From positions 22,942,001 to 23,006,000 of the forward strand of contig NC_087245.1 of assembly GCF_037042905.1 (NCBI RefSeq): DNA of 64,000 bases. The letters are read 5' to 3'. Shown one piece after another: positions 10,055 to 34,200 of this stretch. The stretch's first letter is position 1, and each line of letters opens with the position of its first letter. The position numbers were made by a program, and so were the translations under genes. This DNA comes from Lytechinus pictus (taxonomy: Eukaryota). The notes beneath the pieces were generated by a model. It made no database searches. It was given only the letters and a program-made list of their open reading frames with translations, and was not told the DNA's origin.

Positions 10055-10473
10055 GGGGTAGTCTACCTCAACAAAAAGTTGATTTCAATCAAATAAGCTC
10101 ACTATTTCTTTTGCCTTTTATTATATGAAATATTATATGAAATAAAGTATGAAATGTCTTAAGTTATTCTTCACTTTAATATATAAAAAAAGTTTGATTA
10201 CTCCCTGATATTTTCATTGTTTAAATGAAGAGTCTCCATAATGTCAAATGTTTCAAAACTGAAATATAATATTCATAAATGAAAAACAAAAGTGATAACA
10301 AGTGAGCTTTCTCATATGCACTGTACTGTACAGACCAGTTTTATATAAAAAGAGTAATAAACATTTAAAACGCCATAGCTTTTTTAACATTCAACTTCGA
10401 TTAAATTTTCGCGTTATGCTTCTTTCATTTTCATCTGTTTACTTTCATTGACCATTGGTGTGGACTTCGTCTT
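10055..10473. mobile_element. Degenerate TTAA-flanked (Kolobok-like) MITE, family of 55807-56398
   Basis: ttaaggggtagtctacctcaacaaaaagttgattt ... ggtgtggacttcgtcttt. Confidence 0.55.
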
Positions 10474-10667
10474 TAGGATATTAAAAAAAAAAAAACTTTT
10501 ACAGGTATAATGTTATGTGCCCACGAAAAAGTGTGAGGGAGGGGGCTGGAACCTTATCACTCTACATTACTCCACCTCTCTATTTGCATAATACTATAGA
10601 ACCTGCCCTTTTTATTGTGCGTACACATAAATCATGAATTATATAATAACTTCATATATTTATACAG

Positions 10668-13600
10668 ATGGGAATTCTACAATACTGCATTTTCGTGCTG
10701 TTCAACGTACATGTTTGTCTTTGTGAAATTGCTGTACTTCCAATATTTGGTAAGATATGGTCCACACTCTCAGTTACAGTCTTAAAAGTTTTTAATGATG
10801 GAGGGGGGGGGGGGTTCATTAATTATGGGTATGTATACTGTAAAGGATCATTTAGTATCAATTCATGTTGTAGATAATCTCAATATTCACATTTTTATCG
10901 TATAATATATACGCCTTAATGCATGGAAAAATTTTAATAAATATTCTTATGAATGTTTACCACATCCTCTAAATATATAAACTGATATATTTGTCCATTC
11001 ATAATTCTCGTTTGTGTTTTTGTATCATATTTTTTTAGATTGTTGAATTGGAATATGGAAAATCCTCTTTAAAAAGTGTTAAAGTCACATTGAAATAGTG
11101 ACAGCACCCAAAGAGTAATTCGCGGTTCTTTACCGAGAAAGCAACACAAAATACTGTACATGAAGTATGATATTTAGGCCGAAATACCCATGAAAAAAAT
11201 AACCAATACTTTCCCGCTAGTCTATACATCGTTCAAACCATATCATGCCAAGGGACAAAAGAAATGTAGAAAGCTCCCGAGCACCCGTTTTTAATAAAGA
11301 TCAAATGTCCACCGCATTTTTTTTCACCAGACAAATGAATATGTTCCCAATTGTTTTGTGAAACGGTGTGTATATCAAAACAATCGATGAAGATTGTAGG
11401 CCTTTGGCTGAAGACTAACTTTGTGATTAAGCACCAATTTTTATAAATAAGCCCTGATATTTTTGTTATAATAAAATCACAAAGCGGGTACGGCAGCAGT
11501 GAGTCACCATGCTCGGTTAACTATTGATTTACAAACTGTGTTTTCAGATTTAAACTTAACGTAAAAATTTGTGGTTGTATTGTTACAAGCCACAAGGGCC
11601 CTGGGAACGATTTAGAAAAAAAAGGTATCAATCCAAAATATAGGTGGTTTCGGTCCGGAGAAATTTAACAAGCAAAAGAAAAAAATTCCTTCAAAATGTC
11701 GTTTATTTTCAGTACATTTCTGCCTTTTAAAATACCTACCAGATTTCCAGGGGGTGCTGCATACGGAAAATAGAGATCAATCACATTAGAATGCCTGGTG
11801 GGTGTTTCATAAAGCTTTTCGTAAGTTAAGAACGACTTTAAGAACGACTGGTGACCCTTTCTTGTTTATGGTAGATTCATTGGCGATGGTTTAGCGCGTA
11901 TATAAGGATCACCAGTCGTTCTTAAAGTCGCTCTTAACTTACGAACAGCTTTATGAAACGGCCCCCAGCTTTATTTAATTCATCTCATTGGGGACTATGT
12001 ACCAAAGACTTTAGTTTGCCATTTTCTTGCCATTTCATTTGGAAAATGTATTAAGAACACTTTTCGTTGCAGGATTTAAACATTCTGCACTTATTGAATG
12101 AGGCAGCAACATCAAACAATGCTATGAGAGAATAAACACTGATTCTTCAATTCATATTGTTTGGATGAATATTCAAATTATTACTACATGTATATAGCAT
12201 ACTGACGCATCATCATTGAATTCCAATGTGTGTTTTCATCTTCCCTGTCATTCAGAACTAACATTCATTCTATGTGAACGTGATTCCGGAGCGATCGACT
12301 GCGGCGATGGCGTCATCATCATCTCCACAGCTAACTATGGACGAACTAATTCAGAAACGTGCGGTCAGAGTCACAGCACTAATTGTGTTTCAGACGTTAC
12401 CTCTCTCCTGAGAGCATCCTGCAGTGGCCATAGTACGTGTGCCATTGAAGCCGATAATGACGTTTTTGGAGATCCTTGCGGAGGAGTCCAAAAATACCTA
12501 GAAGTAACATATATATGTATAGGTAATTTCATACACGTTTAACAAACATTTCCTATCCCCGATATGGGAAGGCTATAGTCTAGGAGATAGGGGGCTTTAT
12601 TCAGAATTTTTGGTGGGGAAGGTTTGACAGGTTTATCCGGGGTAAAATTGTGTGCTGATTCCAAAAATGTCAGTCTTATTGACCGTACTCACGACATTTT
12701 AGCCATTTTGGCAAAATTTTGACCAAAAATGACAAATTTGACCACTCTTTGGAAAATGGTCCCTTAACAGAATGCTTTTGTAACCACATCCAATTAAAAG
12801 GTCTATCCTAAGCAAAAATGCACCCAGATTCCAAATAAAGTGGTTTCATTTACCAAATCACACTAGAAGTGGTCATTTTGGCCATGTTTTGACCCAAAAT
12901 GACAATTTTTATGATTTTTTTGTCCGAAATGTGTTACTAACATTGATCAGAACAAAGATTGGATGTCTTTAGAAATCCACACTTATTTTTTAAATGTGCG
13001 CTGGATCACAACAATCAACCTCATATAATTTATTCTGTCAGTTTTGACCTATGACGGTCATTTTGGGTACTTAAGACATAAACTGACCATTCGCGCAGTT
13101 ATGCATTATAAACTGTTCAAATAGGCAGGAAATTGAGGTCTTAAGCATGTATTATCTTCTTCCCTTATTAAATGGTAATGCATTCAGAGGTCCTTCTTGT
13201 GTAGAATTTTATGCTGATTCCAAATATATCAGTCTTAATGACCCTATTCAAAAGCTTATGGTCATTTTGGTCATTTATGTCCCTCAAAATGACCAATAAT
13301 ACAAGTTAAATTTATCCAAAAATACTTTGAATGTTTCCAGAATCGTTACAAGGGTGTGCTGTGACACCTAACATTGATGTATTAATCCTTAAATTGAACA
13401 TCTCAAAATTATTTTGACCTCATGTAACTTATTCCATCAGTTTTGTCCTATGAAGGTCATTTTGGGTATTTAGACATAACTGACCATTTGCGCAACTGTG
13501 CATGATAAACTGTGCAAATCGACAGGAATTGAGGTTTCCAGCGTGTATCTTCTAAATGGGATGTCATTTAAAGGTCTATCCTGTGTAGAATTTTATGCTG

Positions 13601-16600
13601 ATTCCAAATATATCACTCTTAGTGACCCTATTCCAAAGATTATGGTCATTTTGGCCACTTATGGCCCTCAAAATGACCTATAACATCAGTTTAATTTATC
13701 AAAATATATGTCGAATGTTAATACCAGAATCAAGGGTGTGCTGTGACACCAAGCATTGGTTTATTATATCTTTAAATTGAACATCATGAGAGTATTTTGA
13801 ACATCATGAGAGTATTTTGACCTCATGTTACTTATTCCATCAGTTTTGACCTTTGAGTGCCATTTTGGGCACTTTAGACATAACTTACCAGTCGCGCAGC
13901 TTTACATTCATGTTCTATGCAAATACGTACGAACTTAAGATCTCCACCGGGGGTTTCCAGCGTGTTTTATCCTCTTCCCTTATAAAATGGGAATGCATTC
14001 AAAGGTCCATTTTGTGTAGAATTTCATGCTGATTCCTAATGTATCACTGTAAATGACCCTATTTAACAGCTTATGGTAATTTTGGCCACTTATGGCCCTC
14101 AAAATGACCAATAACATCAGTTTAATTTATCCCAAAATACTTCGAATGTTACCAGAATCGTTACAAGGGTGTGCTGTGACACCGAGTATTGGTGTATTAA
14201 TTCTTTAAATTGAATATCTCAAAAGCTGAGTATTTTGACCTCATGTAACTTATCCCATCAGTTTTGACCTATGAGGGTCATTTTGAGTACTTTAGACATT
14301 ACTGACCATTCGCGCAGTTTTGCATAATAAACTGTTCAAATAGGCAGGAATTTGAGGTCTTCAGTGTGTATTATTTTCTTCCCTTATAAGATGGGAATAC
14401 ATTTAAGGTCTATATTGTGTAGAATTTTATGGTTATTAAAAATAAATCAGTCTTATTGACCCTATTTAAGATCTTTTGGTCATTTTGGCCTCTTTTTGGC
14501 CCTCAAAATGACTAATAACATAATTTATCCAATGATACTTGGAATGTTACTAGAATAAAAAAGGGTGTGCTGTGACACTTAACACTGGTATATGAATCAT
14601 TGAAATTGAGCATACCCAAAGTATTTTGACTACCTTGGTCATTTTGGCCACATTGAACCCCGGGCTTTACCCCTGCCCAATGTGTATGTTAATTCACCCT
14701 ATAGCGAACATGGTGAGGATAGATTCAGGATTGCGTTAATATTAGCATCAGTTATTGTTAAATTGGAAAAGTTTGAAAGCTTTTGGGTGAAAATCAATAC
14801 AATGATTTCATATAGTCCAGTGTTATTGGCCTAACTATTGGACCCCGTGGTCCTTTTGACCACTTTTTCCTCAGTGACCTGTGACCACTCATGCTTTGAT
14901 GAAAAAAAAATGCTCCAATGTTGGTCAGTGGCATTATCAGCATGAACTACCAATAATCGGTGAAGAATGTTGATAAATGTGATGAAATCCTTTACATCGA
15001 GTATATATAAGGTTGGCTGAAAAAAAATGGACATTTCTATATAAAGAATGGAAAATTTTGATCAAATTTATAATCGTGAACAAGATAGCTATATAACTAA
15101 ACATTGATGCGAGCGCGAAGCGCGACCAAAAAAAAAATCGAGATTAAGACCTAACAAGTGGAACGCCTCTGGCAGTCTCGCCTGCATTACGCAATTTAAT
15201 ATAGCAGCAGTGCTAACTTTGAAAACTACTATAAAACAATCATTCACAAAAACATTCATATAATGACATAATACCTCGTTCATTGACCATAAATGACATT
15301 TGAACGGAGACTTAAGACTGTCAACTACACCCATGTCCACATTTCATTCACTCTATCCATAAACTTTCAAAGTTATGATGGCACTTCATCAATTACCCCA
15401 ACATGGCCTAAGTTTATTGACCTTAACTGACCTTTGACTTGGTTTTGTGACCTGAAACTCACAGGAGATGTTCAGTGATGCTTGATTACTCTTATATTCC
15501 AAGTTTTATGAACTAGATCCATAAACTTTCAGAGTTAGGATGGTAATTCAACAAATACCCCCTACACGGCCAAAGTTCATTGACCTTAAATGACCATTGA
15601 CCATGGTCCTGTGACCTGAAACTCACACAGGATATTCAGTGGTACTTGAGTAACCTAATGTCCAAGTTTCATGAACTAGATCCATAAATTTTCAAAGTTA
15701 TGATGGTAATTCAACAAATACCCCCAACTTGGCCAAAGTTCATTGATCCTAAATGACCTTTGACCTTGGTCACATGACCTGAAACTCGAGCAGGATGTTC
15801 ACTAATACTTGATTAACCTTATGCCCAGGTTTCATGAACTAGTTTCATATACGTTCTAAGTTATGATGTCATTTCAAAAACTTAACCTTCGGTTAAGATT
15901 TTGAAAATAATTTCCCAACATGGTCTAAGTTCATTGAACCTAAATGACCTTTGACCTTGGTCACATGACCTGAAACTCGAGCAGGATGTTCACTAATACT
16001 TGATTAACCTTATGCCCAAGTTTCATGAACTAGTTTTATATACGTTCTAAGTTATGATGTCATTTCAAAAACTTAACCTTCGGTTAAGATTTTGAAAATA
16101 ATTTCCCAACATGGTCTAAGTTCATTGAACCTAAATGACCTTTGACCTTGGTCATGTGACCTGAAACTCAGGCAGGATGTTCAGTAATACTTGATTAACC
16201 TTATGTCCAAGTTTCATGAACTAGGTCCATATACTTTTTAAGTTATGATGTCATTTCAAAAACTTAACCTTAGGTTAAGATTTGATGTTGACGCCGCCAC
16301 CGCCGTCGTCGGAAAAGCGGCGCCTATAGTCTCGCTCTGCTATGCAGGCGAGACAAAAGCGGGACACTCTATTCGTGTCTTGTAAATCATGAAAAAAATT
16401 AGTAATATGGGATTTTTCTACATTTATAATGCGAGCACAAAGCGCGAGCAGAAAATTTTGATATTGTGATCTGAAACTGGATAATGATTTAAATAAAGAA
16501 CAAGTTGAGTATCGAATAAACATGCGCGCGCCTGTTTCATATTTAGACCTAGAATATAGGCATTCTAAATACATCTTTTATCGTGAAAATCAAAGCGAGC

Positions 16601-19600
16601 GCGAAGCGCGAGCTTAAACTATTATATATTCCGATCTGAAAAAAGTCAATTTCAGCTCTATATTTCAAGCACTTTGTAGGAAAATTGTGAGGTGGATATG
16701 GATCGCACTCAATAAAGAGCTGATATTTTTCATTATTATTACTGTGAGTTTTGACATAGGACCGGCACATCCTTAGGACATGTCATCATATGAAAATGAA
16801 GACTGTCTTCCTATTCCTCTTGCTAAACGCGAGATGAAACAAAAGGGACAATTCAATTATTAAATTAACATCTTATTCATTAATGGCTAATGAGGGCACG
16901 AAATCTGATATGATGGCCTGAAAACTGGACATTTCAAGCACTTTTGTAATTATAACTAGAATGCATCAGTTAATATATTATAAACCATGAATGCGAGCGC
17001 AAATTGCGAGCCTAAATTTTTTATACACTGTCATGAAAAGGGGATTTAAGTAGTTTGTTGTATAATCAATATTGAGACATACATAACTCGCCAATCAAAA
17101 TGCGAGCGTGCAGCACTAGCTGATACGTTTTGACAATCAGACCTGAAAAGGGATATTTTGAAAACTTTATGGAATACACGAAAATAATAGGTACTTGATA
17201 AATCAAAATTTGCGAGCGCGCAGCGCGAGCAGAAAATGTTAATATTTAGACCACAAAACTGATATTTTTACAGAGCACTTTTTAAAAATCAATTTGTAAA
17301 TCACGCAAAATAATGAAAGTTCGATTTCCGAGATGAAATATGTTTTTTTGTGTATTGACTTCCAAACTTGACATTTAAACTGTAAATCACCTAAAAGGCA
17401 ATGCGAGCGCGAAGCGCGAGCGAAAATTTTATATAGTGACATGAACGATTTTCATAATTATTTTCCAAGTCTTCCCCTCATTTTATTCACTCGTCTTCTT
17501 CCTCTTATGTTTCCCCTTCTTTTTTCTCCTCTCTCATCCCTTCTTTTTCTTTTTTTTCTTTATTTCCCTTTTTTTGTTCCGCCAATAGGGGGGGGGGGCG
17601 GGGGCCCGGGCCCCTCCCTGGATCCGCCTATGCTACTACTACTTGTAACATAAAATTAAAATGGCAAATCAACAATATGAGTAAAATACCATTAACGATT
17701 TATGATAATCACACCTAGGCATATTACTACTTCGACTACAACTGATAATAACAATGACATATGAATATTAAAAACATGAATGATAGATAGTGCAAAGAAG
17801 AAAATATTGTTAATATGATCGATGAAAATACATGTTTTGCACACATTAAATGACATCCCTTCTTCGATTTGAAGATTCGGTGAAAAAATATCTGTACTCA
17901 TAACAATACCCACCACCACCACCACCATCATCAACACTTATGTCGGACTAGCTAGATTGAAAAACAAAATGTCAACATAATCAGATTATTTATTGAGGCT
18001 TAAGATATCAAATACCTGATTATTAAATTGCCTCACAACAGGTGAACACTGAGAAGGGGGAAAGAACGGCACGGGGATGGAGCCGGGATTTTCAAAAGTT
18101 TTTTAACCGATGTATAGCAAAAAAAAATGACATATTTAATTGGATTGGCAATGAAGATTTAATATTTTTGTTTCATTTTTGGCATCACTTTCAGGAAGTA
18201 CGACATTGACAACAACGCAAGTCCAAACAATACCACCAACTACTACACCGCAGCAAACTACAACGCAGACGCCATCAACAGCTCAGCAACAAACGACAAC
18301 TGGAATTCCAACTACAACAACAACAACACAGCAGCAAACAACGCATACATCAACAACAAATGAAGAAACAACAGCACAACCATCAACCTTACCGCAACAA
18401 CTAACTACAATACATCCATTGACAACAACACAGCAACAAACTACAGTTAGAAATTCAACAGGGCAGCAGACAACAACGCAAAAATCAGCATCATATGAAG
18501 TAACAACACCGCAGCAACAACCTACAACGCATCCATCTACAACCCCAACGCAACAGCAAACGACGGTAGGCACTTTAACAACAACAAATGAAGAAACAAC
18601 AACGCAACCATCAACACCGCAACAACAACCTACAACGCATTCATCTACAACACCAACGCAACAGAAAACGACGTTAGGCCCTTTAACAACAACAAATGAA
18701 GAAACAACAATGCAACCATCAACACCACAACAGCAACCTACAACGCATCCATCTACAACACCAACGCAGCAGCAAACAACGTTTGGCCCTTCAACAACAA
18801 CATGGCAGCAAACAGCACCGGAGACATCAACATCATATAAAGAAACAACAACGCGACCCTCAACCACACCGCAACAGCAACCTACAACGCATCCATCTAC
18901 AACACCAACGCAGCAGCAAACAACGTTTGGCCCTTCAACAACAACACAGCAGCAAACAGCACCAGAGACATCAACATCATACAAAGAAACGACAACGCAA
19001 CCCTCAACAACACCGCAACAGCAACCTACAATGCATCCATCTACAACACCAACGCAGCAGCAAACAACGTTTGGCCCTTCAACAACAACACGGCAGCAAA
19101 CAGCACCAGAGACATCAACATCATACAAAGAAACAACAGTGCAACCCTCAACACCGCAACAGCAACCTACAACGCATCCATCTACAACAGTGACGCAGCA
19201 GCAAACAACGTTTGGCCCTTCAACAACAACTGGGCAGCAAACAACAACACAGACAACAACAACGCAACCCTTGTCAACACCGCAGCAGAAATCTACAACG
19301 CATCCATCTACAACAGCAACGCAGCAACAAACGACGATTGGCCCTACAAGAACACAACAGCACAGAACAACGCAGATATTAACAACAAATAAAGGCACAA
19401 CACCACAAACCCCAAGAACACAGCAGTTAACTACAACGCGTCCATCGATATCAGCACAGCAACAAACCTCAGTTGGATCTTCAACAACAACACAACGGCA
19501 AACAACAATGCAGACATCAACGGAAATTGAAAAGACAGCGACACAGCAGCAAACGGCATCACAGACATCAAAACAAAATGAGAAAACAACGACTCAACTC

Positions 19601-21901
19601 TCAACAACACCGCATCAGCAACCTGCTACGCATCCATCGACAACAGCACAGCAACAAACGACAGTTGGATCATCAACAACACATGACCAAACAACAACGC
19701 AGCCATCTACAGAAAATAAAGAAACACAATCGTCAACAAGACAGCAGCAAACAACAACATCAAATGAAGATACATCAATGAAACTACCACAAACTACGAC
19801 ACAGCAGCAATCTACAATACATCCATCAATAACAACACAGCAACAAACGAAAACGCAGATGTCAACGGCGAATGAAGAGACAACAACACAGCAGCAAACG
19901 ACAACTCAGACATCAAAACAAAATGAGGATACAGCGACCCAGCTCTCAACAACATCGCAGCAGCAACTCACAACGCATCCATCAACAACAATGCAGCAAC
20001 AAACGACAGTTATATTTTCAACAACAACACAGCCGCAGCCAACAACGCAGATTTCATCATCAAATAAAGAAAGAACAACGCAACCTTCAACAACAACCCA
20101 GCAGCAAACAACAAGACAGCCATCAACAACAGTGAATGAAGAAACAACAACAATAACCCCGACTCATACATCTACAGGAACAAAAGAAACATCACAGCCA
20201 TCAACAACATTACTTCTGCAAACTACACTGCAACCCTTGACAACATTGCAGCAGCAAATTTCTACGGAAAGATTAACAACAAAGGAAGAAACAACAATGG
20301 TAACAGTGATAGCAACAGATCCCTTAACAACAGTGCATGAGGAGACGTCGACACAACATCAAACGACAACGTGGTCATCGACTTCAACGCAACAGCAAAC
20401 AATGCATGCATCAACATTATTGCATGAACAATCACCAACGCAACAATCAACCACATTACATCAGCGAACAACGTTATTCTCATCGTCAATGCAACAACAA
20501 TCGACATTGCATTCATCAGCATCAACGCAACAGCAAACAACATCAGAATCGCAACAAACAAACCATCAGCAAACTACATCAGAGCCAAGAAAAACGACGC
20601 AGCAGCAAACAAGAACGCAGTCTTCGGCACGACAAAGCACAACGCAGCCATCACCCATAACACCGTTGATGCAAACAACGCAGCCATCAACAGCACAAAT
20701 GCAGCAGCTAACGACAACGCATCATTCATCAATCGGACGACAGACAACGTCGGGGACCGCAGAAATATATCAAGCAGGAGCAACACAGAGAAAATTGCCA
20801 TCAAAATGTGAGTTTGCAACTCAAAACAAATATCACATTAAAAAAAATATAATACACGCCACTGCAGGATCACCCAAAGGCAGGGGCGGATCAAGTATTC
20901 GCCAATATCGGGGGAGGCGGAAAATATTTTCATCCATACTTTAAACATCTGCCGCTAAAAGCTGATTTATGTTTTTTTAAGGGGGTATTCCTAGGGAAAG
21001 GCTCCTGTATAGTACTCATTGAGCCTTGCTCAATAGGATATAAAAAAACATTTATAACTTTAATTCCTTTACCGAGAATTAATTTCAACTAGTATATTTT
21101 GTGTTTATTTGTCTGTTTTAAAGGATATAAAATGCGATATGTGGCATCCATATCACGATTTTCAAAAATGTATTTTCCGACCATACTGATTAATTGATCA
21201 ATAGTACACAAAATAATACCCCTTTCATAAACCCAAATTATGCGGATAATATCCGCATAATTTGGTCGTAAAATCGGAGCGGGACCAGAGTTATCCGCAT
21301 TATTTCGATGCTGCAATTATCCGCATAATAGCGGCATCGGGACCAGATTTTGACTTTATCATGAACGCATTTCCAAAGTAATGCGGATAATTGCCATGGT
21401 GTGGTCACAAGGTCACCCTTTTCCAAAACAACCCCATCGGAGGGGGTGTGTGCAGTTGCCATGACAATTATCCGCCTTTTTTAGGTCGGGCGCTCGTAAA
21501 AAATAGTGCAGATTATTTTCGGAGTTGGTGAATGCAATTTTTATTGAATTATCCGCATTACTCTTAGGCGGATAATTGGAAGATGGGTTTATGAAAGGGG
21601 TATTAGTAATACTATGAATGAGTTTCGTTGTATTGAATGTGTGTGATTTACTTTGATTGCAGATAAGACATTCAGAAGATACTGGCTTCTTGCAGACAAC
21701 GCCGTACTCGATGCCTCATACACGCTCCCTGGTGTGACGTCATTCATCCAGTGCAGTCAAATATGCTTCGATGAGGCCTCGTGTCCAGCTTTCACATATA
21801 TCAAAAGTGATAGATTGTGCTTAATAGGCGAGCCCTCAGCCCTGAACATGCTTCAACTACACCAGGGGGCTAAGACATATTCAAGCGAGCTTAATTTGTA
21901 A
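10668..21901 (+). CDS. Secreted SUEL-lectin / Thr-Gln mucin / PAN-apple protein (1066 aa, 4 coding exons)
   Basis: Exons 10668-10749 (82 nt, hydrophobic signal peptide MGILQYCIFVLFNVHVCLC), 12256-12522 (SUEL domain), 18195-20807 (T/Q mucin) and 21663-21901 (PAN-like, stop). All introns are GT-AG phase 1; the joined CDS is 3201 nt and in frame. A probable 5' UTR exon has its donor at 9410 (AAG|gtaagt), since an acceptor AG directly precedes the ATG. Confidence 0.85.
11795..11968. mobile_element. Palindromic MITE with ~65-bp TIRs (Harbinger-like, CTG/CAG flanks)
   Basis: gtttcataaagcttttcgtaagttaagaacgactttaagaacgactggtga pairs with tcaccagtcgttcttaaagtcgctcttaacttacgaacagctttatgaaac; a degenerate second copy lies at ~41177-41357. 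Confidence 0.8.
12256..12522 (+). CDS. Exon encoding a SUEL / rhamnose-galactose-binding lectin domain (gene 1, exon 2)
   Basis: LCE...IDC...ANYGRT...C...C...C.G...C....NDVFGDPCGGVQKYLEVTYIC: 8 Cys plus the ANYGR and DPC-KYL signature motifs; ttcag| acceptor and |gtaatt donor. Confidence 0.9.
12628..14680. repeat. Intronic element with ~4 tandem ~400-420-bp units
   Basis: Unit marker tcagttttg(a/t)cct at ~13038, 13437, 13840, 14259; the units share gtgtagaatttt.tgctgattcc, ggtcattttggcc and agggtgtgctgtgacacc. Confidence 0.8.
15027..17629. mobile_element. Non-autonomous element with repeated GCGAGCGCGAAGCGCGAGC hairpins and a ...ccctggatccgcct terminus (host of the HINE insertion)
   Basis: Hairpin motif at 15109, 16595 and 17403, with variants at 16431, 16993, 17102, 17212; terminus gggcccctccctggatccgcct at ~17608-17629; a related 5' end caggggcggatc lies at 20881. 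Confidence 0.6.
15153..16358. mobile_element. Helentron-associated (HINE/DINE-like) non-autonomous element with ~180-bp internal tandem repeats
   Basis: Subterminal IRs gtctcgcctgca (15175-15186) / tgcaggcgagac (16343-16354); terminal hairpin gtctcgctctgctatgcaggcgagac; tandem aagttcattga.ctaaatgacctttgaccttgg units; inserted in an A-run with no TSD. Confidence 0.75.
18195..20807 (+). CDS. Thr/Gln-rich mucin-like exon (gene 1, exon 3; 871 codons)
   Basis: Open frame dominated by T, Q, S, P with 108-bp and 144-bp tandem units; tttcag| acceptor and |gtgagt donor, phase 1-1. Confidence 0.88.
21217..21602. mobile_element. PIF/Harbinger (Tourist-like) MITE
   Basis: Perfect 19-bp TIR tacccctttcataaaccca / tgggtttatgaaaggggta with TAA/TTA flanks; internal ttatccgcat / atgcggataa repeats. 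Confidence 0.85.
21663..21901 (+). CDS. Terminal exon encoding a PAN/apple-like domain (gene 1, exon 4)
   Basis: S-x2-Q-C-x3-C-x5-C-x-A-F-x-Y-x4-R-L-C pattern (SFIQCSQICFDEASCPAFTYIKSDRLCLI); ttgcag| acceptor. Confidence 0.8.
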
Positions 21902-22951
21902 CTTATTAAAGTTGGAATCCACATGGATTTTAGATCAAGAGGAAAGATGGATGTGAAAGAACACGAAATGTACGAATTAGCCAGTTACTTTATATAAATA
22001 AATATAAGTGTGTGGAGATAAAGATCATTTACTGAATTAAAAAACAACAACCCACAGATAGGAAAATCTAAGTGAGCAAGAACGAATCTATAACCCAAAC
22101 TGGATTCTGGACATCGAGCCTCGTACGTGAGTTATAAAAGGGCAAGAGAATGAAGTGACTCGCCTCGAGGTGCGCGTAGCTGAAATGTGCTACATTCATT
22201 GGAACTCTTCGGTTTGCCAACGTTCTTTTCCGCCATTCATGAGATATATCACCTCTGCCGGGCACCTTCGCTACTTTTAAAATATCTGTAGATATTAGAA
22301 ATCAATCGAACTCTTAATAACAGCGAACTTGTGTATGGATTTATTGACACCGAAATGCAGTTGTCATAGGACTGATAAAATATGAAACTTATTGCATGTG
22401 TACATTTTTCTTCTACTCACGTATTCCGAAATTCATAATAATGTCGTGTAGTGTCATAGCATTAGAAACATATGTACTAGCTCCATTACGAAAAGTGAAA
22501 ATTTATTTTGGAAAATAAATATTTACTTTGAAAATGGGTTGAAAATTATTTAAATTTATCGGTTTATTGAGTTCGCTCTCTTCAAACACGTTTTAAATCA
22601 AATTTAATAACTGCCATGTTATTTTAATTTCCAGTTATTATTATGCAGAGATGTGTGACAAAAATATATGTTACAGTGCAAAAGTACAAGCAATCTTTAC
22701 CATGTTTAGCAGCGGCGTACGCAGAGGGGGTTCAAACCCCCTTAATTTTTTTAAAGCCCATTTTGTACGCAGGGAGGTGGTCACAGAGTTTCAACCCCCC
22801 TAACAAATTAACCCCCAACAATTTTGTTGGTAAAAATGAAATTACGACCCCGAATAGAATTGCAGGGTGTAATTCTTTAATAAATATCCCATCCTTCGTC
22901 CCAAGCCCCCCGCCCCCCATTTTTGCTGAAAGGGGGTGGTAAAAAGTCATT

Positions 22952-23089
22952 CAGGGTCCCTTTACACAAAGGTTAGCGATTAATCGTACGCTTGATTTTG
23001 ATTTTCACAACTGATTTTACATTGTAGTCAATGCAATTAATCATTAAAACTGTTCTAAGGATTGCTAAGATTTGTGTAACGGGCCCCAG
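22952..23089. mobile_element. Small Harbinger-like MITE
   Basis: cagggtccctttacacaaa ... tttgtgtaacgggccccag. Confidence 0.55.
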
Positions 23090-24970
23090 ATTAGTTTAAC
23101 CGAATTTTGACTTTACATTCATCCTTCAAACAGCCATTTCAAAGACCGGTTTGTTACCGCTTGGTCTACAGACTTATAACATAATCCCTCTCATATCCAT
23201 ATTCTTATTTTTTGTTTGAATTCAAGAAAATAGTTTGGTGTTTCTGTGCAAATTTCTGTTGGATACTGACATGACTGTTGCTAATTATGGGAAAATCCAG
23301 AGTTTGAGACTGTTTTTACATGGAAAATGCAAATTTTCAAGGGCACCCTGGCCTTATATCGGCAAAGTACCAAGTGCTGTAGTCAACACGTCTAGTTTGA
23401 AATTCTTAATATGATTATGTAAGAAATTAATATTTGGATTGCAAATCACTTGGATTATGTAAGGGATACTGGTTTATCTAAAGAAAAGAAGGAAAAAACA
23501 GCTTCACTCTTATGCGTTATGATTATGGAAACAAAATTCTCAAAATCAACTCCTTATTGTTGAATATTTCTTCTGGTTTCTCATTTTTTTCTTGTCTCCT
23601 TTTTTTTCATTATACAATGAATTTACATCTTTATCCATATATGTACTCAATAGCTGCTTATACAACGTACATAAACATGATCAGATGAATAAACATTCCG
23701 ATGAGAAATTTTAAATTATTTATCCAATGTTTGTCACTGACATAATTCTCGATGTCATCACCATATGCGGGATTGTCTTAAGACTATTATGCTTATGAGG
23801 ACTTTAAATTTAAATTGAAGGCCCTGTGGACACTTTTGGGGTATACTTTTGTGACCCCCAAAATGCAATTAAATGATAAGCTAGTGAATAAACGGGGGGG
23901 GGGGGGCAGTGCCCTCTCCCTTCTTGCCCTCATTTTATACGACCATACCTGAACTAAAATAACATCAATATCTCGCTGAGTTAAAGACAATATAATATCT
24001 GGCTATTTCCATAATCTAAAATGACTGCATTAGTGCATATAATCACCCCGAGGAAGTGATAATGCTGTCATATCCACTGAACTCAAAACGTGACTAATTT
24101 CTTGCTTCATACGCCTATCCCGAATACGAAACGAAATAATCATAAAAAGAATTAAACGGGACATATTTCGCCGCGCATTTAAAGCTTATTTAAGTAAGGT
24201 AATGATTGAGATAATAAACAGTGCAACGAACCTTTATCTAAAATAGTACACGGTGCCATGCACTTTTTCCAAACTTTGAGATGCAACACATTTTCATTTT
24301 GCGCATACTTCAGATAATGGTTATAGTCGCTGTGACTACAAAGGTCTAAATCAACTTGAGGGATCAGCGAAAAGCAGAACGTCATCTTGTGAATGAAGGC
24401 CGAATCTACAATTCAAAACCCGATTCACTTTTCTCAGTAAGTGGAATATAATTCATAATAACGATAAGTATAGGCAATTAAACAAACAATAGACAAGCAA
24501 TCAGTGATGTATGGAACACTAATTTCGAGTCACCTCGTGGGTCGATCGCGTTCGTCACAATCGCTTCAACATATTTCGAGCGCAATTACCATGATGACCA
24601 TTAACACGAATTCAAATTTGGCAATTTCGTGTGCATTGTCATGTAATTATTTAAACTCTAAACTACAATCCGGTATATCTACTGAAATATACGGATCAGT
24701 GGGTACATCCTACATATTCTAAAAGGTCATAATTTTGAGACGAGTTTATTTTGGGGGTGTTAATCCAATCCCACTTTAAACTCCCCCCTCTCTACCAATA
24801 TTTAGATCATATATATAGAGGATACTGCATTATATTAGGTATCTGCAAACATATTCCTAACCTGGTTCAGTATAATACGCTATTGATCCTCAGGAGAAAA
24901 AAAAAACAATATTCCTCCGAGAAAATTGAAGTCATAATTCTTTTGAGAGCATTTGTAATTTTTACATGAA

Positions 24971-27851
24971 ATGGATTTGACGTTTTATTTCATCCTCTGT
25001 ATGTTCCATATCGTCTTCATACATGCATCGGATGGTCGGGAGCTATGCGGGGGTAAGTTGTTGCGCACTTTAAATAGAATACGTTTATAAAATTAAAATA
25101 GTTTGCACATCGAAAGAAATATCAGTTTTACAAAATAAATAAATAATTAAATAAATAAATGAATGAATGAATGAATACAAATAAATATGATTTTTTTTAA
25201 ATTCCGACCGTTGAATAAACCTTGCTGTCAGATAAAAGCCGTTTTTCAGGAATAATGAATAAAAAATGTATAATCGGGGTAAAACGAATACGATGAACGC
25301 CCTCTAAAAAGGGGAACAAGAAACTAAATAATATACGAATGTAATAATACAAAAGGACACCATAAATATATTTAGATTGTACTTTAGAAAAAAAAAAAAA
25401 AAGTGTACAAGACAGCATCCGATTCGTTTTAGTCTTTAACTTAAATATCGCCTGTTTTGGTGATGTTTAATATAAATTCAAATCGATTCTGCACAGACGA
25501 CACCATTGCTAATTCACTCGTCACTCAACCCCCTCCTTCCCCTTTGTCCAAACCTCTCCCCTCAGGTCCCTAACTACCCCCTATCTCTCCCTAGTCTGCT
25601 ATGCAGACTCTGAATGGCTCGTGAAGTGGGATCTGCAGCTGGTTTGCGAAGCAAACCAGCCTGAAAGGGCGAGCGAAGCGAGCCATTCAGAGTCTGCATA
25701 GCAGACCTAGTAGACCCAGTCTGCTATGCAGACTCCCTGAATCAGCTGTGATACACACACTACAGATGTGGGTCTACAGTTGTAGACTACTATCTCCATT
25801 ACCTGTATGTCTATCACTCTGTCTCCGTCCGTCCGTTCGCTTATCTATTTCTTTCCCTCTCTGTCGAAGCATGCAATTCAAACCATGTGGAACACAACGG
25901 ATCCTGCTATTACTTCTCGACCAGTGTGGCCAACCACTCCGACGCAAACCAATCGTGCCATGACATCGGCCTCTACTTGGTTGCCATAGAAACTCCTGAG
26001 GAACAGGACTTTGTAGTGGACAATCTACTGAACCCCGACGTTAACCACTGGATAGGGTTAACTGCTGATGGTAGCGGAAACCAAGTGTGGTCGGACAGTA
26101 CGAATGTGACATATAGTAACTATGGCATGGATGAAGTTAACGTATTTGATGATGGAGGTCTTTGTTTCAGAATACGACCATCAAACAATTACACTTGGTA
26201 TGACCAGATTTGCTCTAACCTATATCGCTACATCTGCGAAAGGAAAACCAGTGAGTCCATTTTTGCCAATTCGAAGTATTTCTTTAATTCCTACTTGGGC
26301 TGTTATACTGTATATGTATTTTTTAATTATTTTTTTCTTTCTTTGCTGTTGTTATTTATATCTTGAATATAACCTGTTTCACTTTACAAATATGCTTCTG
26401 AAGATGGACTGAAATGAAGATCGAAATAAGAAAATCAAATACGACTTTACGAAGAGTTTGCTCACTCAGATCAGTTTGTCTGAATATAAAGTTACATCCA
26501 TTCTAATGTTCAATCCGCATCAGCTGAAATTTAGCGTTTAGTCAAGCCATGGCAATTTCATTTTCCGTAATTCGTATTGCTCTTAAATTTTAGTGTGCCC
26601 AGATACGTCTGCAGAAACCCCTACTACCACACTTTATACAGGAACATCATCGATAGACCCAATCTCAATTCTTTCATCTGATGCAACTCAGACGATCCAA
26701 AATATGGACACATCTGCATCCTTACATGACAATACGGGTGCTTCTTCTGTGACTTCAGCCAATATGTCAACATTCGCGCCATTGGAGACGACAGATGGTT
26801 TTATCTATGATACAAACAACGCAACCATGGCGACACCCCCATTGTCCTCCTCCACACCAACATCAACTGCACCACGATCATCTTCATCACTTCCATCATC
26901 ATCTTGGACCACAGACGGTGGCTTTACCTCTAAATCTTATCTACTTACAAGCAAGATGACAGCCGCACCTACTACACATTTCACAACCACTTGTCATGGC
27001 AAACGTGGTAAGTACTATACCTGTTTGAAACAGCCGTTTTCAGTCATTTTTAAAATTTTCATTCCAACATGTGAATACAATAGTAAATAGCATTTATTTT
27101 TCCTCCATAAACAAAGATATACATTTGCAGTTTTTGGGTGCCGTACTCATATTTGGATAGCTAAACATGATTCATTATATTTCTATATTGATTTCACCAG
27201 ATAGAAAGCACAGTAAAGGGAAAATACGGTGTGGTGGTGGCGGAGAAAGGTGCTGCTCTAGGGTTATTTTGTTATGCTTAATCATAAGTCAATTAGATGT
27301 CAGTCAACGATGCCATTAGAAAATGATGAAAAAAAGAGAACATTGGATAAAATCGATCCTTTTCTTCATGAAATGGGTTTTTCAATACCCCTCAAGAAAA
27401 ATATGTTGAAAAACTATCAAGTTTATTTGTTTTGAAAGTGGCATTCTGGAATAGTAAACTTACAGACCTTCAAAGAACATAGAAGCATTAGGAGTTCCAG
27501 CATGACACCAAAGTTGTTTTTAATCAAGGCTTTCACTGCCCTGTTCCGAGGCCCAATAAGCATGTTTCTTTGTGTTACTACTTACTGATACTCTTTGAAA
27601 CAGAATACACGAGAAGCACAAATTTCAGACTACTAGCCAGCAATTCAACGATCAACGCTGACTATATTCATTCATCATATTCTGTATCGTCACACATCGG
27701 ATGTGCCCAACAATGCCTCGCAAACGTCATGTGCACGGCTTTTGCATTTCTTCCAACTGAAAGATTGTGCTTGCTAGGTGAAAGAGGTGGGACATCATCA
27801 CGCTTCAAGAGACACCTTGGGGCTACAACTTATTTGATGGTTTCTGTCTAA
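24971..27851 (+). CDS. Secreted C-type lectin / Ser-Thr mucin / PAN-apple protein (374 aa, 4 coding exons)
   Basis: Exons 24971-25052 (82 nt, signal peptide MDLTFYFILCMFHIVFIHASDG), 25870-26250 (CTLD), 26594-27007 (S/T stalk) and 27604-27851 (PAN-like, stop). All introns are GT-AG phase 1; the joined CDS is 1125 nt and in frame. Confidence 0.85.
25591..25790. mobile_element. Two adjacent small hairpin MITEs (AGTCTGC...GCAGAC termini)
   Basis: gtctgctatgcagactctgaatggctcg (25594) pairs with cgagccattcagagtctgcatagcagac (to 25706); inner hairpin gctggtttgc-gaa-gcaaaccagc; a second unit starts agtctgctatgcagact at 25718. Confidence 0.7.
25870..26250 (+). CDS. Exon encoding a C-type lectin domain (gene 2, exon 2)
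   Basis: C-x9-SCYYF, A..SC, LVAIETPEEQ, WIGL, W-SD, C-x10-WYD..C......ICE. Confidence 0.9.
27604..27851 (+). CDS. Terminal exon encoding a PAN/apple-like domain (gene 2, exon 4)
   Basis: SSHIGCAQQCLANVMCTAFAFLPTERLCLLGE; homologous to gene 1 exon 4. Confidence 0.8.
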
Positions 27852-31253: not shown

Positions 31254-34200
31254 TTAGGGCGAGACCTTATTCCTAAGCCACTGACCGATGCTGTCTCCAT
31301 CCCTAGCTAACCATTTGGCCTTGAGTCGGATGTTCTCTAAGGACTGCTGGACGGTTCTTTCAGCTGCAGGGGCAGGATGGGCTTCAAAGAAGGCTTGGAC
31401 CTCCAAGGCCCTCTCTTCCGTGGTGAAACCCTCGGTGCAGGACTGCAATACACAACAAATAATTCGCATTAATGGAAATAAATGTAGGCAGACGAGTATA
31501 GTATACTTCCTTCTCCTCATACAACTGGTAATGGCCCTAATGATTGTGCCATTGATTAATGATGGTACAACTACTGTTGTTATAATACTAATGCTGCTCA
31601 TGCGATTGCTCACACTACTACCAATACTCCTTTAGCTGCTGCTAGTACTATTACCACTACTTTTTCTACTACTACTACTACTACTATTTCTACTACTACT
31701 ACTCCTACTACTTCTTGTACTACCACAACTACTATTGCTGCTGCTACTACAACTGCCACAACTGACACTTTTAGTACAACTAGAACTATCATTGCTTCTG
31801 CTCATTTATGCATGTATTGTTAGATATACATGTAGCAAGTGTTATACAGAATCAAATTTTGTCTAGGACAACTGATATTGTTCATGAATGTAAATTGATA
31901 TCTACTGCATTGTATGCCCAATAAATATACACATTGAGAGCCCAATTTGCAACTTTGTCTCTTAATTGTATCCCCCTCCATGGAATTTTGTAAATACATC
32001 AACTCATCTCAAGTTTACTGAATTCCTGTTCGATAGAATAGTAGTTTTGAAGTCTAGATTTCCTGATTGCCGTTTGTTACCTTCCTGAAGACCCCCCCTT
32101 TCCAGGACAAGAACGTTGCAGAGTTCTAAGAATTCTTCTTAGACCTACCTGTACAAGTCTCGCAAGAAGGAAACCACCAGAGAATCTTTCATGGAGCTCC
32201 GACCATCTATCCTGCAGGAACTGCCATGCCAGCTCTCGCCCCGTCTTTGTACCCGTCACTCCGCTGATCACAAACACGGTGTCTTGTGATCGTACATGCT
32301 CCTGTATACACAACAAGGTAGTGAGGCCAATAGACCACTTCGTATTTTGCTCATGTCTCAAATGACCACTAATATACACATACATTTAAAATATTTAGAA
32401 TGCAGGCACATAGAAACAGATGTGTGTGTAATTGAGATTTTTCAGATATGATTACTTCCATCTGGGACCGACCTTTAACATCACCATCCGAAAGACGGGA
32501 CCAGGGCTCGAACCTTGAAATCAGATGTATCTTACAAATATATCTTAATTCCCTATCAAAATATTAATACCTCTATTGAGATAGGCACCATGTTTGTACA
32601 ATCGATTGCTCTCGGAGAGTAGTCCTATTCCTATTAATTCATGCACATTTCAGGACACCGTAAGAGGAATCATGCCATCTACCACCACACTTTGTAGTCA
32701 ACGAGGCTCAATCTTCAGAATCCAGCTTGATAACATCTCTCTTCATTTTACCATCTGTAGGGAGACTATCCCTTTTTTTCCTTTCTTTGGGCCACCATGC
32801 AAACTTCACAGATCATCTGATTCCAAACAATTTTTAGATCCAATGAAGCCCCATTACTCTCGTATCGCTCATCATAATCTTCAAAATGCCATCTTACATC
32901 CAGGGCCCCGTCACATTAAGTGCAACAATTGATCCCAGGGCTGACGTCTATGATTGATTGCATTGATTATGGTTCATAATCAATCACAAAAAGCAGCCCC
33001 ATAATCAATTACAAAGCTCTATGTAATGAGGACCATTAAATGCTGACTTACCCCCATGGAGAACTCCAACACTCTCTTGATGAGAGCTGGATCTTTGATT
33101 GCACCAAGAGATCTCTGGATGCGATCTTTCTCTTCTTGGAGGTCTTGTGTTTTGAAGAACTGTACAAGAAAAGAGACAGAATGATTCACTGATTAAAGGC
33201 AATAAAAATCACAGAATTAAGAAGTCAAGAATTGTAAAGGTAATTCTGCCCAAGTCAAATCTCTTGGGACCAAACGACTTCGACTTACAAATTACAGAAG
33301 GTAATCAGCGCGTCTTGCATCATCTGGTCTCAAATTTGCTTTGTCTTCCATCATTATTTGACTTACGCAGAGGTCGACTTGGCGAAATTAAGGTTGACTA
33401 ACGCAGACTTCACTGTACTACAATAATATTCTTGAAATCAAGAAAACCTCATGACAAAACAGGATAATTCATTAATCTATGGTCCCAATCAATGAAAAGC
33501 TTGATGAAATGCCCCCTCCCCCTGCCTATTAGAACCTTGAATCTTTGAAGCTTCTTACCTCGATCATCTTATTGAGAGTGTCTTCACCACCATGAGCCAA
33601 CACCGTCAGGTAGACCGAGTTTCTGAGGTCAGCCGGGAGCTGTGCACCTCCTGAGCAATGTGCATCGAAGCGCTTACGGGCTTCCTCGACTGTAGCTTCA
33701 TGTCCGTTGCGTCCCATCACTCTGATCACAAGCGCTCTCAACAAGGCATCCAGGTGATCTGCAGGAAAAGCCAGGAAAACATCCAAACTCACTCGCCTTA
33801 CACAATACCTGCTCAATTTAGATCCATCCAATTACATGTAGAATGTATAGCCATATCATAGAAGGGCATTGTAGAAATCAGGATTGGACTTACCAATGAG
33901 GAGGGGTCAATAATATCTTCAATTGAAATTTCTAGAAATAATTCAATATTAATATCTAATAGTATTTTCTTTATAGAATTCTACACATTTTTATCATCTA
34001 AATATACATAAAATGACATGATGATAAATTTGTGTGAACAATTGTTCATATGCATTGCATCCTTTCATGGCAACAATATTTTATTGATGCAGGTATAGTC
34101 CACACTCCACAGAGTATGTATAGGGATGCCAGTCAAATTTAATTGCTGGACCTGAAAAGAAGCCAGAACATGATAAAGTATATATATATTTGATGAATAC

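Follow-up and report, generated by a model that had tools for sequence, protein, structure and literature searches.

We analysed a 64,000-nucleotide (nt) stretch of the genome of the sea urchin Lytechinus pictus (NC_087245.1, C1:22942001-23006000; hereafter the window), in which two adjacent genes on the forward strand each join a hydrophobic leader, a lectin-type head, a Ser/Thr-rich stalk and a terminal PAN domain, and searched the 812-Mb genome for their relatives. Gene 1 (10668-21901, +) carries a SUEL head and gene 2 (24971-27851, +) a C-type lectin-like domain (CTLD). Each has four exons, given here in window coordinates.

10668..10749, +, gene 1 exon 1: ATG and 27-codon hydrophobic leader, 82 nt, donor GTAAGA, phase 1; MGILQYCIFVLF
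12256..12522, +, gene 1 exon 2: single SUEL/rhamnose-binding lectin (RBL) domain, 267 nt, phase 1-1
18195..20807, +, gene 1 exon 3: 871-codon Thr/Gln/Ser/Pro-rich mucin-like stalk, 2613 nt, recognized by composition and tandem repeats
21663..21901, +, gene 1 exon 4: terminal PAN domain and stop, 239 nt with the stop, PAN_1
21902..22538, +, gene 1 3' untranslated region (UTR): contig ends at 22251 (run X1) and 22538 (run X5), AATAAA at 22514
24971..25052, +, gene 2 exon 1 (putative): ATG and hydrophobic leader, 82 nt, donor GTAAGT, phase 1; MDLTFYFILCMF
25870..26250, +, gene 2 exon 2: single CTLD, 381 nt, phase 1-1, Lectin_C
26594..27007, +, gene 2 exon 3: 138-codon Ser/Thr-rich stalk, 414 nt, recognized by composition
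27604..27851, +, gene 2 exon 4: terminal PAN domain and stop, 248 nt with the stop, PAN_1

Rebuilding both gene plans from stop-to-stop frames, with splice sites inspected at the coordinates of an earlier note on this DNA, reproduced its claim of two same-strand genes that share one four-exon plan with phase-1 introns throughout. All six introns have GT..AG ends and cut after the first codon base, the internal exons of both genes are multiples of three, and the order is the same in each: an 82-nt hydrophobic exon, a lectin exon, a Ser/Thr-rich exon and a terminal PAN exon. Each start ATG is the first in-frame ATG past upstream stops, and the predicted translations are 1066 amino acids (aa) for gene 1 and 374 aa for gene 2.

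We interpret the two genes as neighbouring members of an urchin family composed of leader, lectin head, stalk and PAN tail, each part on its own phase-1 exon, in which gene 1 likely arose by exon shuffling that put a SUEL head in place of a CTLD; we assign this interpretation a probability of roughly 0.6. By this route, the CTLD exon of a CTLD-stalk-PAN ancestor gene would have been swapped for a SUEL exon between phase-1 introns, yielding gene 1.

The heads are of unrelated folds, as the earlier note had held, and the Pfam comparison that it proposed placed SUEL_Lectin, Lectin_C and, in both genes, PAN_1 above their curated cut-offs. Exon 2 of gene 1 matches SUEL_Lectin (PF02140) over profile positions 2-80 of 80 (E = 2.7e-19, 69.7 bits, cut-off 31.4), and exon 2 of gene 2 matches Lectin_C (PF00059) over positions 4-107 of 107 (E = 1.5e-14, 55.0 bits, cut-off 22.6). 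Rhamnose-binding lectins are known by the hallmark motifs YGR, DPC and KYL and by eight conserved cysteines; the SUEL exon of gene 1 has eight Cys together with ANYGRT, GDPC and QKYLEV, which line up with their counterparts in each of the three domains of the L-rhamnose-binding lectin PDB 5h4s (E = 3e-45 against this structure, 9e-31 against CSL3). The best solved relatives of the gene 2 CTLD are CTLDs of the mannose receptor family, with E values of 2e-33 to 1e-28 over several repeats.

Behind these heads lie stalks of biased composition. That of gene 1 (870 aa) is 44.7% T+S (53% T+S+P), with 8.3% P, 19.7% Q, no Cys and no stop, and contains tandem units of 108 and 144 nt with 84-92% matches; no Pfam family was found on this exon. 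The gene 2 stalk (137 aa, 41.6% T+S) drew from Pfam only Myc_target_1 at a chance-level E of 0.17, far under the cut-off.

The homology of the two PAN exons that the earlier note described is borne out by 37% identity over 70 aa (pairwise E = 1e-14). PAN_1 (PF00024) matches the gene 2 exon with E = 4.9e-7 (30.0 bits, cut-off 21.4) and the gene 1 exon partially, over profile positions 20-51 of 76 (E = 4.5e-5, 23.6 bits, same cut-off). Both exons have the marks of the family: a phase-1 acceptor about 8 nt before RST, the spacing C-x3-C-x5-7-C-x11-C and a GAxTY near the stop; four Cys are invariant in the family alignment. The mutual identity of the two window PANs is 37-38%, and their identity to other members reaches up to 42%. 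At this degree of divergence, gene 1 and gene 2 are not a recent duplicate pair, and the swap would not be recent either, because the two PANs stand as far apart as any two members. The PAN fold packs a sheet against one helix and has a hairpin fastened by two disulfides. An AlphaFold2 model of the gene 2 PAN, made from an alignment of 19 family sequences (the gene 1 PAN was not folded on its own), has five strands and one helix at a pLDDT of 88.1, and Foldseek placed it with probability 1.00 and TM scores of 0.63-0.75 beside the HGF N domain, SML-2, the MIC4 apple domain, the factor XI apple domain and the plasminogen PAN. A profile of 19 PAN exons matched the Toxoplasma gondii MIC4 apple domain (5.6e-10), a factor XI apple domain (2e-6) and S. 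muris SML-2 (9e-6), so that the nearest solved relatives by profile are apple domains of micronemal proteins; an ESM Atlas look-up returned only 'PAN domain'.

Genome searches with the gene 2 PAN, the gene 1 PAN and a discoidin-type PAN gathered 24 PAN exons of this type in L. pictus (20 + 2 + 2), and the phase-1 acceptor (two leading bases) lies about 8 nt before a conserved RST in 19 of the 19 examined, which sustains the idea of a family that shares its terminal exon. Most of the 24 lie in open frames that end a few residues past GAxTY. Among the introns of other members' NCBI models, all four that resolved exactly are phase 1 (20 junctions tried, 16 unresolved). For each PAN exon we surveyed 20-40 kb upstream for heads, passing same-strand frames through Pfam and a local CTLD profile. 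The scan covered 150 of 156 upstream open reading frames (ORFs) of at least 70 aa with at least four Cys, as well as 118 ORFs with fewer Cys at eight loci, and could miss Cys-poor heads outside those eight loci. The heads were distributed as follows.

C-type lectin exons, 1-4 per gene: 17 of 24 PAN exons, upstream on the same strand
SUEL: 1 of 24 PAN exons, gene 1
F5/8C discoidin: 2 of 24 PAN exons, on C16 and C2, upstream on the same strand
CUB with a large mucin exon: 1 of 24 PAN exons, at C1:10.65 Mb, NCBI 'mucin-2-like', a marginal member
Nothing recognized: 3 of 24 PAN exons

This tally, a check that the earlier note had outlined, did uncover CTLD, SUEL, discoidin and CUB heads, but the proposal that heads are freely exchanged does not survive it: because most heads are CTLDs and SUEL occurs once, this is a CTLD-stalk-PAN family with rare head replacement. 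Nor is the mucin and PAN scaffold constant, as had been supposed, since in both discoidin genes the discoidin donor is phase 1, fitting the PAN acceptor, and no Ser/Thr exon lies between the two. A family-wide motif, FDDGGxCF, occupies the sugar-site place of the CTLD; an exon of this type is present in gene 2 (FDDGGLCF) and absent from gene 1, whose sole head exon is SUEL. The PAN of the CUB gene is a far outlier, with a tree branch of 3.99 and a match to the gene 2 PAN only (E = 0.008), and the membership of this gene in the family is doubtful.

For the three PAN exons without an assigned head, the 40 kb upstream of C11:400092 held no recognizable head, only Ser/Thr-rich repeat ORFs and a retroelement ORF; its near-copy at C11:924570 had no head within 20 kb upstream; and upstream of C15:9924151 there were only Cys-rich ORFs lacking a Pfam match. 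The near-identical PAN exons at C11:400092 and 924570 are 524 kb apart, and a second pair on the same contig, C11:4523753 and 4553208, consists of identical PAN exons, separated by 29.5 kb and each preceded by four CTLD exons. Both pairs stem either from recent segmental duplication or from duplication in the assembly. Within C8:1016001-1072000, about 45 kb hold four CTLD(n)-PAN genes in tandem (4, 4, 4 and 2 CTLD exons).

A family profile retrieved NCBI models from L. pictus, L. variegatus and S. purpuratus in which a leader, CTLD(n) and a Ser/Thr linker precede a C-terminal PAN; the origin of the family thus goes back at least to the separation of these genera. The models bear automatic names such as 'macrophage mannose receptor 1-like', 'lymphocyte antigen 75-like', 'cell wall protein DAN4-like', 'serine-rich adhesin for platelets-like' and 'A-agglutinin anchorage subunit-like'. 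One further profile match, P0006, a multi-PAN protein of 1047 aa in a Logan assembly, was rejected as not of this family.

Turning to the origin of the SUEL head, each of the three closest SUEL paralogues in the genome occupies one phase 1-1 exon, similar in size to that of gene 1. Modules of this kind can enter at phase-1 introns and leave the reading frame whole, which fits the exon shuffling that the earlier note had proposed. The 18 other SUEL exons all lie away from PAN exons, making gene 1 the sole SUEL-PAN gene detected. Gene 1 also matches its neighbour in exon number, in phases and in the 82-nt length of its first exon, and CTLD heads dominate across all resolved PAN clades, so that the simplest ancestor is CTLD-headed.

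Several observations weigh against this interpretation, and they concern the ancestry of gene 1, the transcripts and models of both genes and the binding site of the gene 2 head. The PAN tree is star-like, and the gene 1 PAN, the most divergent member outside the CUB gene, sits on a long branch (1.48) and is not sister to gene 2; such a tree would accord with a swap in either direction, with the head replaced or with the tail captured. The two 82-nt leader exons share 29 of 82 bases, an identity reached by 3158 of 20000 shuffles and thus no detectable likeness, which leaves descent of the 5' end of gene 1 from the family unsupported. These same features would suit an alternative history in which a mobile PAN exon, with or without a stalk, was added independently to SUEL, discoidin, CUB and CTLD genes, with no constant scaffold at all. 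It would account for the two discoidin genes that join F5/8C straight to PAN, for the very distant PAN of the CUB gene, for a gene 1 leader that is unlike that of gene 2 and lacks the M-[DE]-x-[ST] start of CTLD members, and for a gene 1 that is not nested in any CTLD clade of the PAN tree. We nevertheless consider such tail capture rather unlikely, given that gene 1 adjoins a CTLD-stalk-PAN gene with an equal exon count, the same phases and an equally long first exon, and given that CTLD heads (17/24 overall) prevail across the resolved clades.

Transcript evidence bears on the four-exon plan of gene 1, for which head replacement is our preferred account. The earlier note had suggested an RNA check of the eight exons; it succeeded for junctions 2-3 and 3-4 of gene 1, which are present in contigs, but yielded no spliced reads for gene 2. 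Support for gene 1 comes from RNA-derived contigs of two public runs (X1 and X5) belonging to two studies. One contig in each run makes the SUEL-mucin join, from 12255-12520 to 18193-18602, and the aligner's cut at 12520/18193 is equivalent to the junction 12522/18195 because AG fits on either side. A second contig in each run makes the mucin-PAN join, linking sequence ending at 20807 to sequence starting at 21663 and continuing into the 3' UTR; RNA pieces in X1 extend to 23455 and may represent a longer 3' UTR form. At the other end, the SUEL-joined contigs carry 73 and 431 extra letters 5' of the SUEL exon, and the RNA depth in the bin 10400-10993, where exon 1 lies, corresponds to some 73 and some 130 nt in that bin, an indirect sign of exon 1.

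Set against this, the joint between exons 1 and 2 of gene 1 is absent from the contig junctions listed for X1 and X5. In addition, two word-indexed protein searches returned no gene 1 protein model or orthologue among the matches listed, a result that is weak either way: the 3 matches listed for the SUEL-exon query were all fish RBLs, and none of the 18 listed for the family PAN profile had a SUEL domain. The first exon itself encodes a leader with a best 12-residue Kyte-Doolittle mean of 2.46. In raw RNA runs X9 and X10, of which about 6% each was covered, no read fell on an exon of gene 1 or gene 2, which says nothing on expression.

The model and transcripts of gene 2 provide further points on the negative side. 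Its NCBI model, P0001 ('mucin-5AC-like [Lytechinus pictus]'), agrees exactly with the exon 2-3 and 3-4 junctions, but its 5' end has no leader exon and consists of a short start and a CTLD exon extended upstream. This extension (25767-25869) crosses a tract rich in pyrimidines and a repeat that is highly covered by RNA (25569-25902), and the P0001 5' end is probably a modelling artefact. Its best 12-residue hydrophobicity mean is 1.53, compared with 2.48 for the 82-nt leader exon, which we take, on these sequence grounds, as the better, if putative, 5' end. The leader so defined starts MDLTFY, and four complete CTLD-PAN models of other urchin genes have MDFSFH, MEISCY, MELSFF and MEISCY, a comparison in which the Met is internal to the NCBI model in three of the four. 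Neither the six contig runs nor the two raw RNA runs hold a spliced record of gene 2: there is no cover in X1 and X8, and exons 1-2 are without cover in X5-X7, which weighs neither way on expression. Finally, an unspliced 2622-nt contig (26345-28966), found in X5, X6 and X7 of one study, runs over exons 3-4 of gene 2 and the adjoining introns.

These gaps could mean that gene 2 is silent, decaying or wrongly modelled, so that the apparent pair would be a real gene 1 beside a relic; the missing spliced cover, the unspliced contig over its last two exons in three runs and the odd, leaderless 5' end of the NCBI model are what one would cite for it. We judge this improbable. All four exons read through without a frame break and are bounded by canonical splice sites, the leader is like that of relatives that look expressed, and blank cover in a few runs of unspecified tissue says little. 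The L. variegatus orthologue also keeps the frame intact, with 122 of 127 residues identical in the CTLD (96%), 112 of 132 in the stalk with 6 gap columns (85%) and 73 of 82 in the PAN (89%); the CTLD and PAN are thus more conserved than the stalk, the pattern that a functional gene should show.

As for the unspliced RNA, it begins at exactly 26345 in all three runs and RNA continues to at least 29400. Downstream of gene 2 lies a multi-exon M1 aminopeptidase gene on the minus strand (about 31257-48716 in the window; puromycin-sensitive type by eye), with ERAP1_C frames at 31257-31631, 32080-32385 and 33532-33831 and a Peptidase_M1 frame at 39415-39690. The sharp end beside a minus-strand A-rich stretch and the aminopeptidase downstream make this RNA, the contigs of which give no strand, more likely the long 3' UTR of the aminopeptidase, antisense to gene 2, than a product of gene 2.

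A last difficulty concerns the head of gene 2 as a lectin. The canonical Ca2+/sugar site of CTLDs combines EPN or QPD with WND. At these places the gene 2 CTLD reads EVN (EPN in FcRY domain 2) and WYD (for WND), and the L. variegatus orthologue has EVH in place of EVN. Sugar binding through the classical site is therefore doubtful, and for this head 'lectin' may be a misnomer, its residues suggesting a ligand that is perhaps not a sugar.

Comparison with known systems sets both genes apart from their closest relatives. The head of gene 1 is a full RBL domain of the kind found in sea urchin egg lectin, in SUL-I of Toxopneustes pileolus pedicellarial venom (PDB 5h4s) and in chum salmon CSL3 (PDB 2zx0), and Toxopneustes belongs to the same urchin family as Lytechinus. 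SUL-I is described as a 32-kDa protein with three RBL domains (PMC12193733). Whereas known RBLs are small, with one to three RBL domains, gene 1 sets a single RBL domain before an 870-residue stalk and a PAN. The CTLD of gene 2 has its closest solved counterparts in the mannose receptor family (MRC1, PLA2R, DEC-205/LY75 and FcRY), and urchin multi-CTLD members have two to four tandem exons. Mannose receptor family proteins combine ricin-type and fibronectin type II domains, 8-10 CTLDs and a membrane span, and are not known to carry a mucin linker or a PAN. The urchin members differ in having 1-4 CTLDs, a mucin-like linker and a C-terminal PAN; on the window exons Pfam found neither a ricin-type nor a fibronectin type II domain, and there is no membrane span.

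The PAN tail has its fold in common with MIC4, SML-2, the apple domains of factor XI and prekallikrein, and HGF N, but is a single, C-terminal domain behind a mucin stalk in place of a tandem array or a fusion to a protease. Secreted proteins that combine PAN domains with Ser/Thr-rich, presumably O-glycosylated spacers are known from Caenorhabditis elegans LET-653 and Drosophila NompA, which have a ZP domain and N-terminal PANs; the urchin genes lack a ZP domain by Pfam and carry the PAN at the C terminus behind a lectin head. With the gel-forming mucins MUC5AC and MUC2 they have a repetitive Ser/Thr/Pro-rich region in common, but Pfam found none of the VWD, C8, TIL and cystine-knot domains on the lectin, stalk and PAN exons of either gene, so the name 'mucin-5AC-like' reflects composition only.

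Both proteins are predicted to be secreted, given their hydrophobic leaders and, beyond the PAN, neither a membrane span nor a long hydrophobic tail; they end 5-10 residues past GAxTY. In the mechanism that we propose, the stalk would be densely O-glycosylated and extended, and the protein would act as a two-ended bridge whose binding head and PAN tail are kept apart by the stalk. The head of gene 1 keeps eight Cys and the YGR, DPC and KYL motifs and is closest to solved RBLs, from which one may fairly predict that it binds sugars of the rhamnose or galactose type; the head of gene 2 would bind another, possibly non-sugar ligand. The PAN tail would engage a partner in matrix, in mucus or on the cell surface, and the bridge would thereby anchor or cross-link glycosylated material on an epithelium or within a secretion. 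Among PAN relatives, the ligand is galactose for MIC4 and SML-2 and heparin for the HGF N domain (in part from the titles of their structure entries), so by analogy the PAN tail could bind sugars itself. Defence, adhesion and mucus biology are candidate settings in which the two proteins may act.

A structural role in place of a recognitive one would make the family members constituents of adhesives, of gamete coats, or of a cuticular or hyaline matrix, with heads and PAN serving to cross-link a self-assembling material rather than to sense foreign glycans. The gene 2 CTLD without its canonical sugar site would be at home there, as would stalks that range from 46 to more than 800 residues across the family models, and one paper counts lectin-like, discoidin and mucin-like proteins among candidate echinoderm temporary adhesives (PMC7037938). 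The sections of echinoderm adhesive papers examined name no domain combination of this family, and the gene 1 RBL domain retains every motif of active rhamnose-binding lectins; we hold it as a tenable but minority view. A bolder picture, which we put forward as speculative and unlikely, is an echinoid plug-in array of surface-tethered glycan binders in which a conserved PAN anchor, usually on a mucin stalk, has been joined by phase-1 exon shuffling to at least three unrelated sugar-binding folds (CTLD, RBL and discoidin), the PAN perhaps being a lectin as well, like that of apicomplexan micronemal proteins, to form a diversified, mucus-anchored layer for recognition or cross-linking without a described counterpart.

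The earlier note had not recognized the architecture as a named family. A full-text literature search found no description of a CTLD-mucin-PAN or SUEL-mucin-PAN family, subscription journals (for example, the 2006 urchin immune-gene survey) lying outside its reach, but the NCBI pipeline does annotate the family in three urchin species under unrelated names. The family, and its SUEL-headed member especially, thus appears to be undescribed though present in databases. That phase 1-1 exons build mosaic extracellular proteins is textbook knowledge, and all the domains are well known; the finding leaves general principles unchanged. If our interpretation is right, it adds a transcript-backed head replacement by exon shuffling within a living gene family, with the module boundaries, the intron phases and the likely class of donor exon all in one genome. 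It also flags an unnamed urchin family of about two dozen likely secreted lectin-stalk-PAN genes hidden under misleading automatic names, which are candidates for urchin immunology, adhesion and mucus biology in that they may present a glycan-binding head and a possible second site across a glycosylated spacer.

Elsewhere in the window, a 627-aa open frame at 1446-3326 (-) belongs to a LINE-like retroelement (RVT_1, 8.9e-32). The introns of gene 1 contain repeats with very high RNA cover (15152-16933, 11588-12181 and 21092-21685), where summed contig depth reaches up to 185,000 and no Rfam match was found. Within the first of these, 15152-16339 drew 400-670 reads in two raw RNA runs, nearly all with the first mate on the plus strand, and the contigs have many loose ends into unlike sequence, as for a dispersed transcribed repeat.

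Among the SUEL loci of the genome, the closest paralogue of the gene 1 exon is 55% identical and lies at C2:51816578-51816832 (L052:4578-4832, -). About 2 kb downstream on the same strand is a CTLD-like frame (L052:2319-2528, Lectin_C 2.3e-5), and the gene at this locus, near which no PAN exon was detected, may combine SUEL and CTLD modules. Contig C4 carries multi-domain rhamnose-binding lectins without introns between the domains: four SUEL domains in one 432-aa open frame at C4:26620256-26621425, and three in one 293-aa open frame at C4:21363011-21363850, a layout like that of the venom lectin SUL-I.

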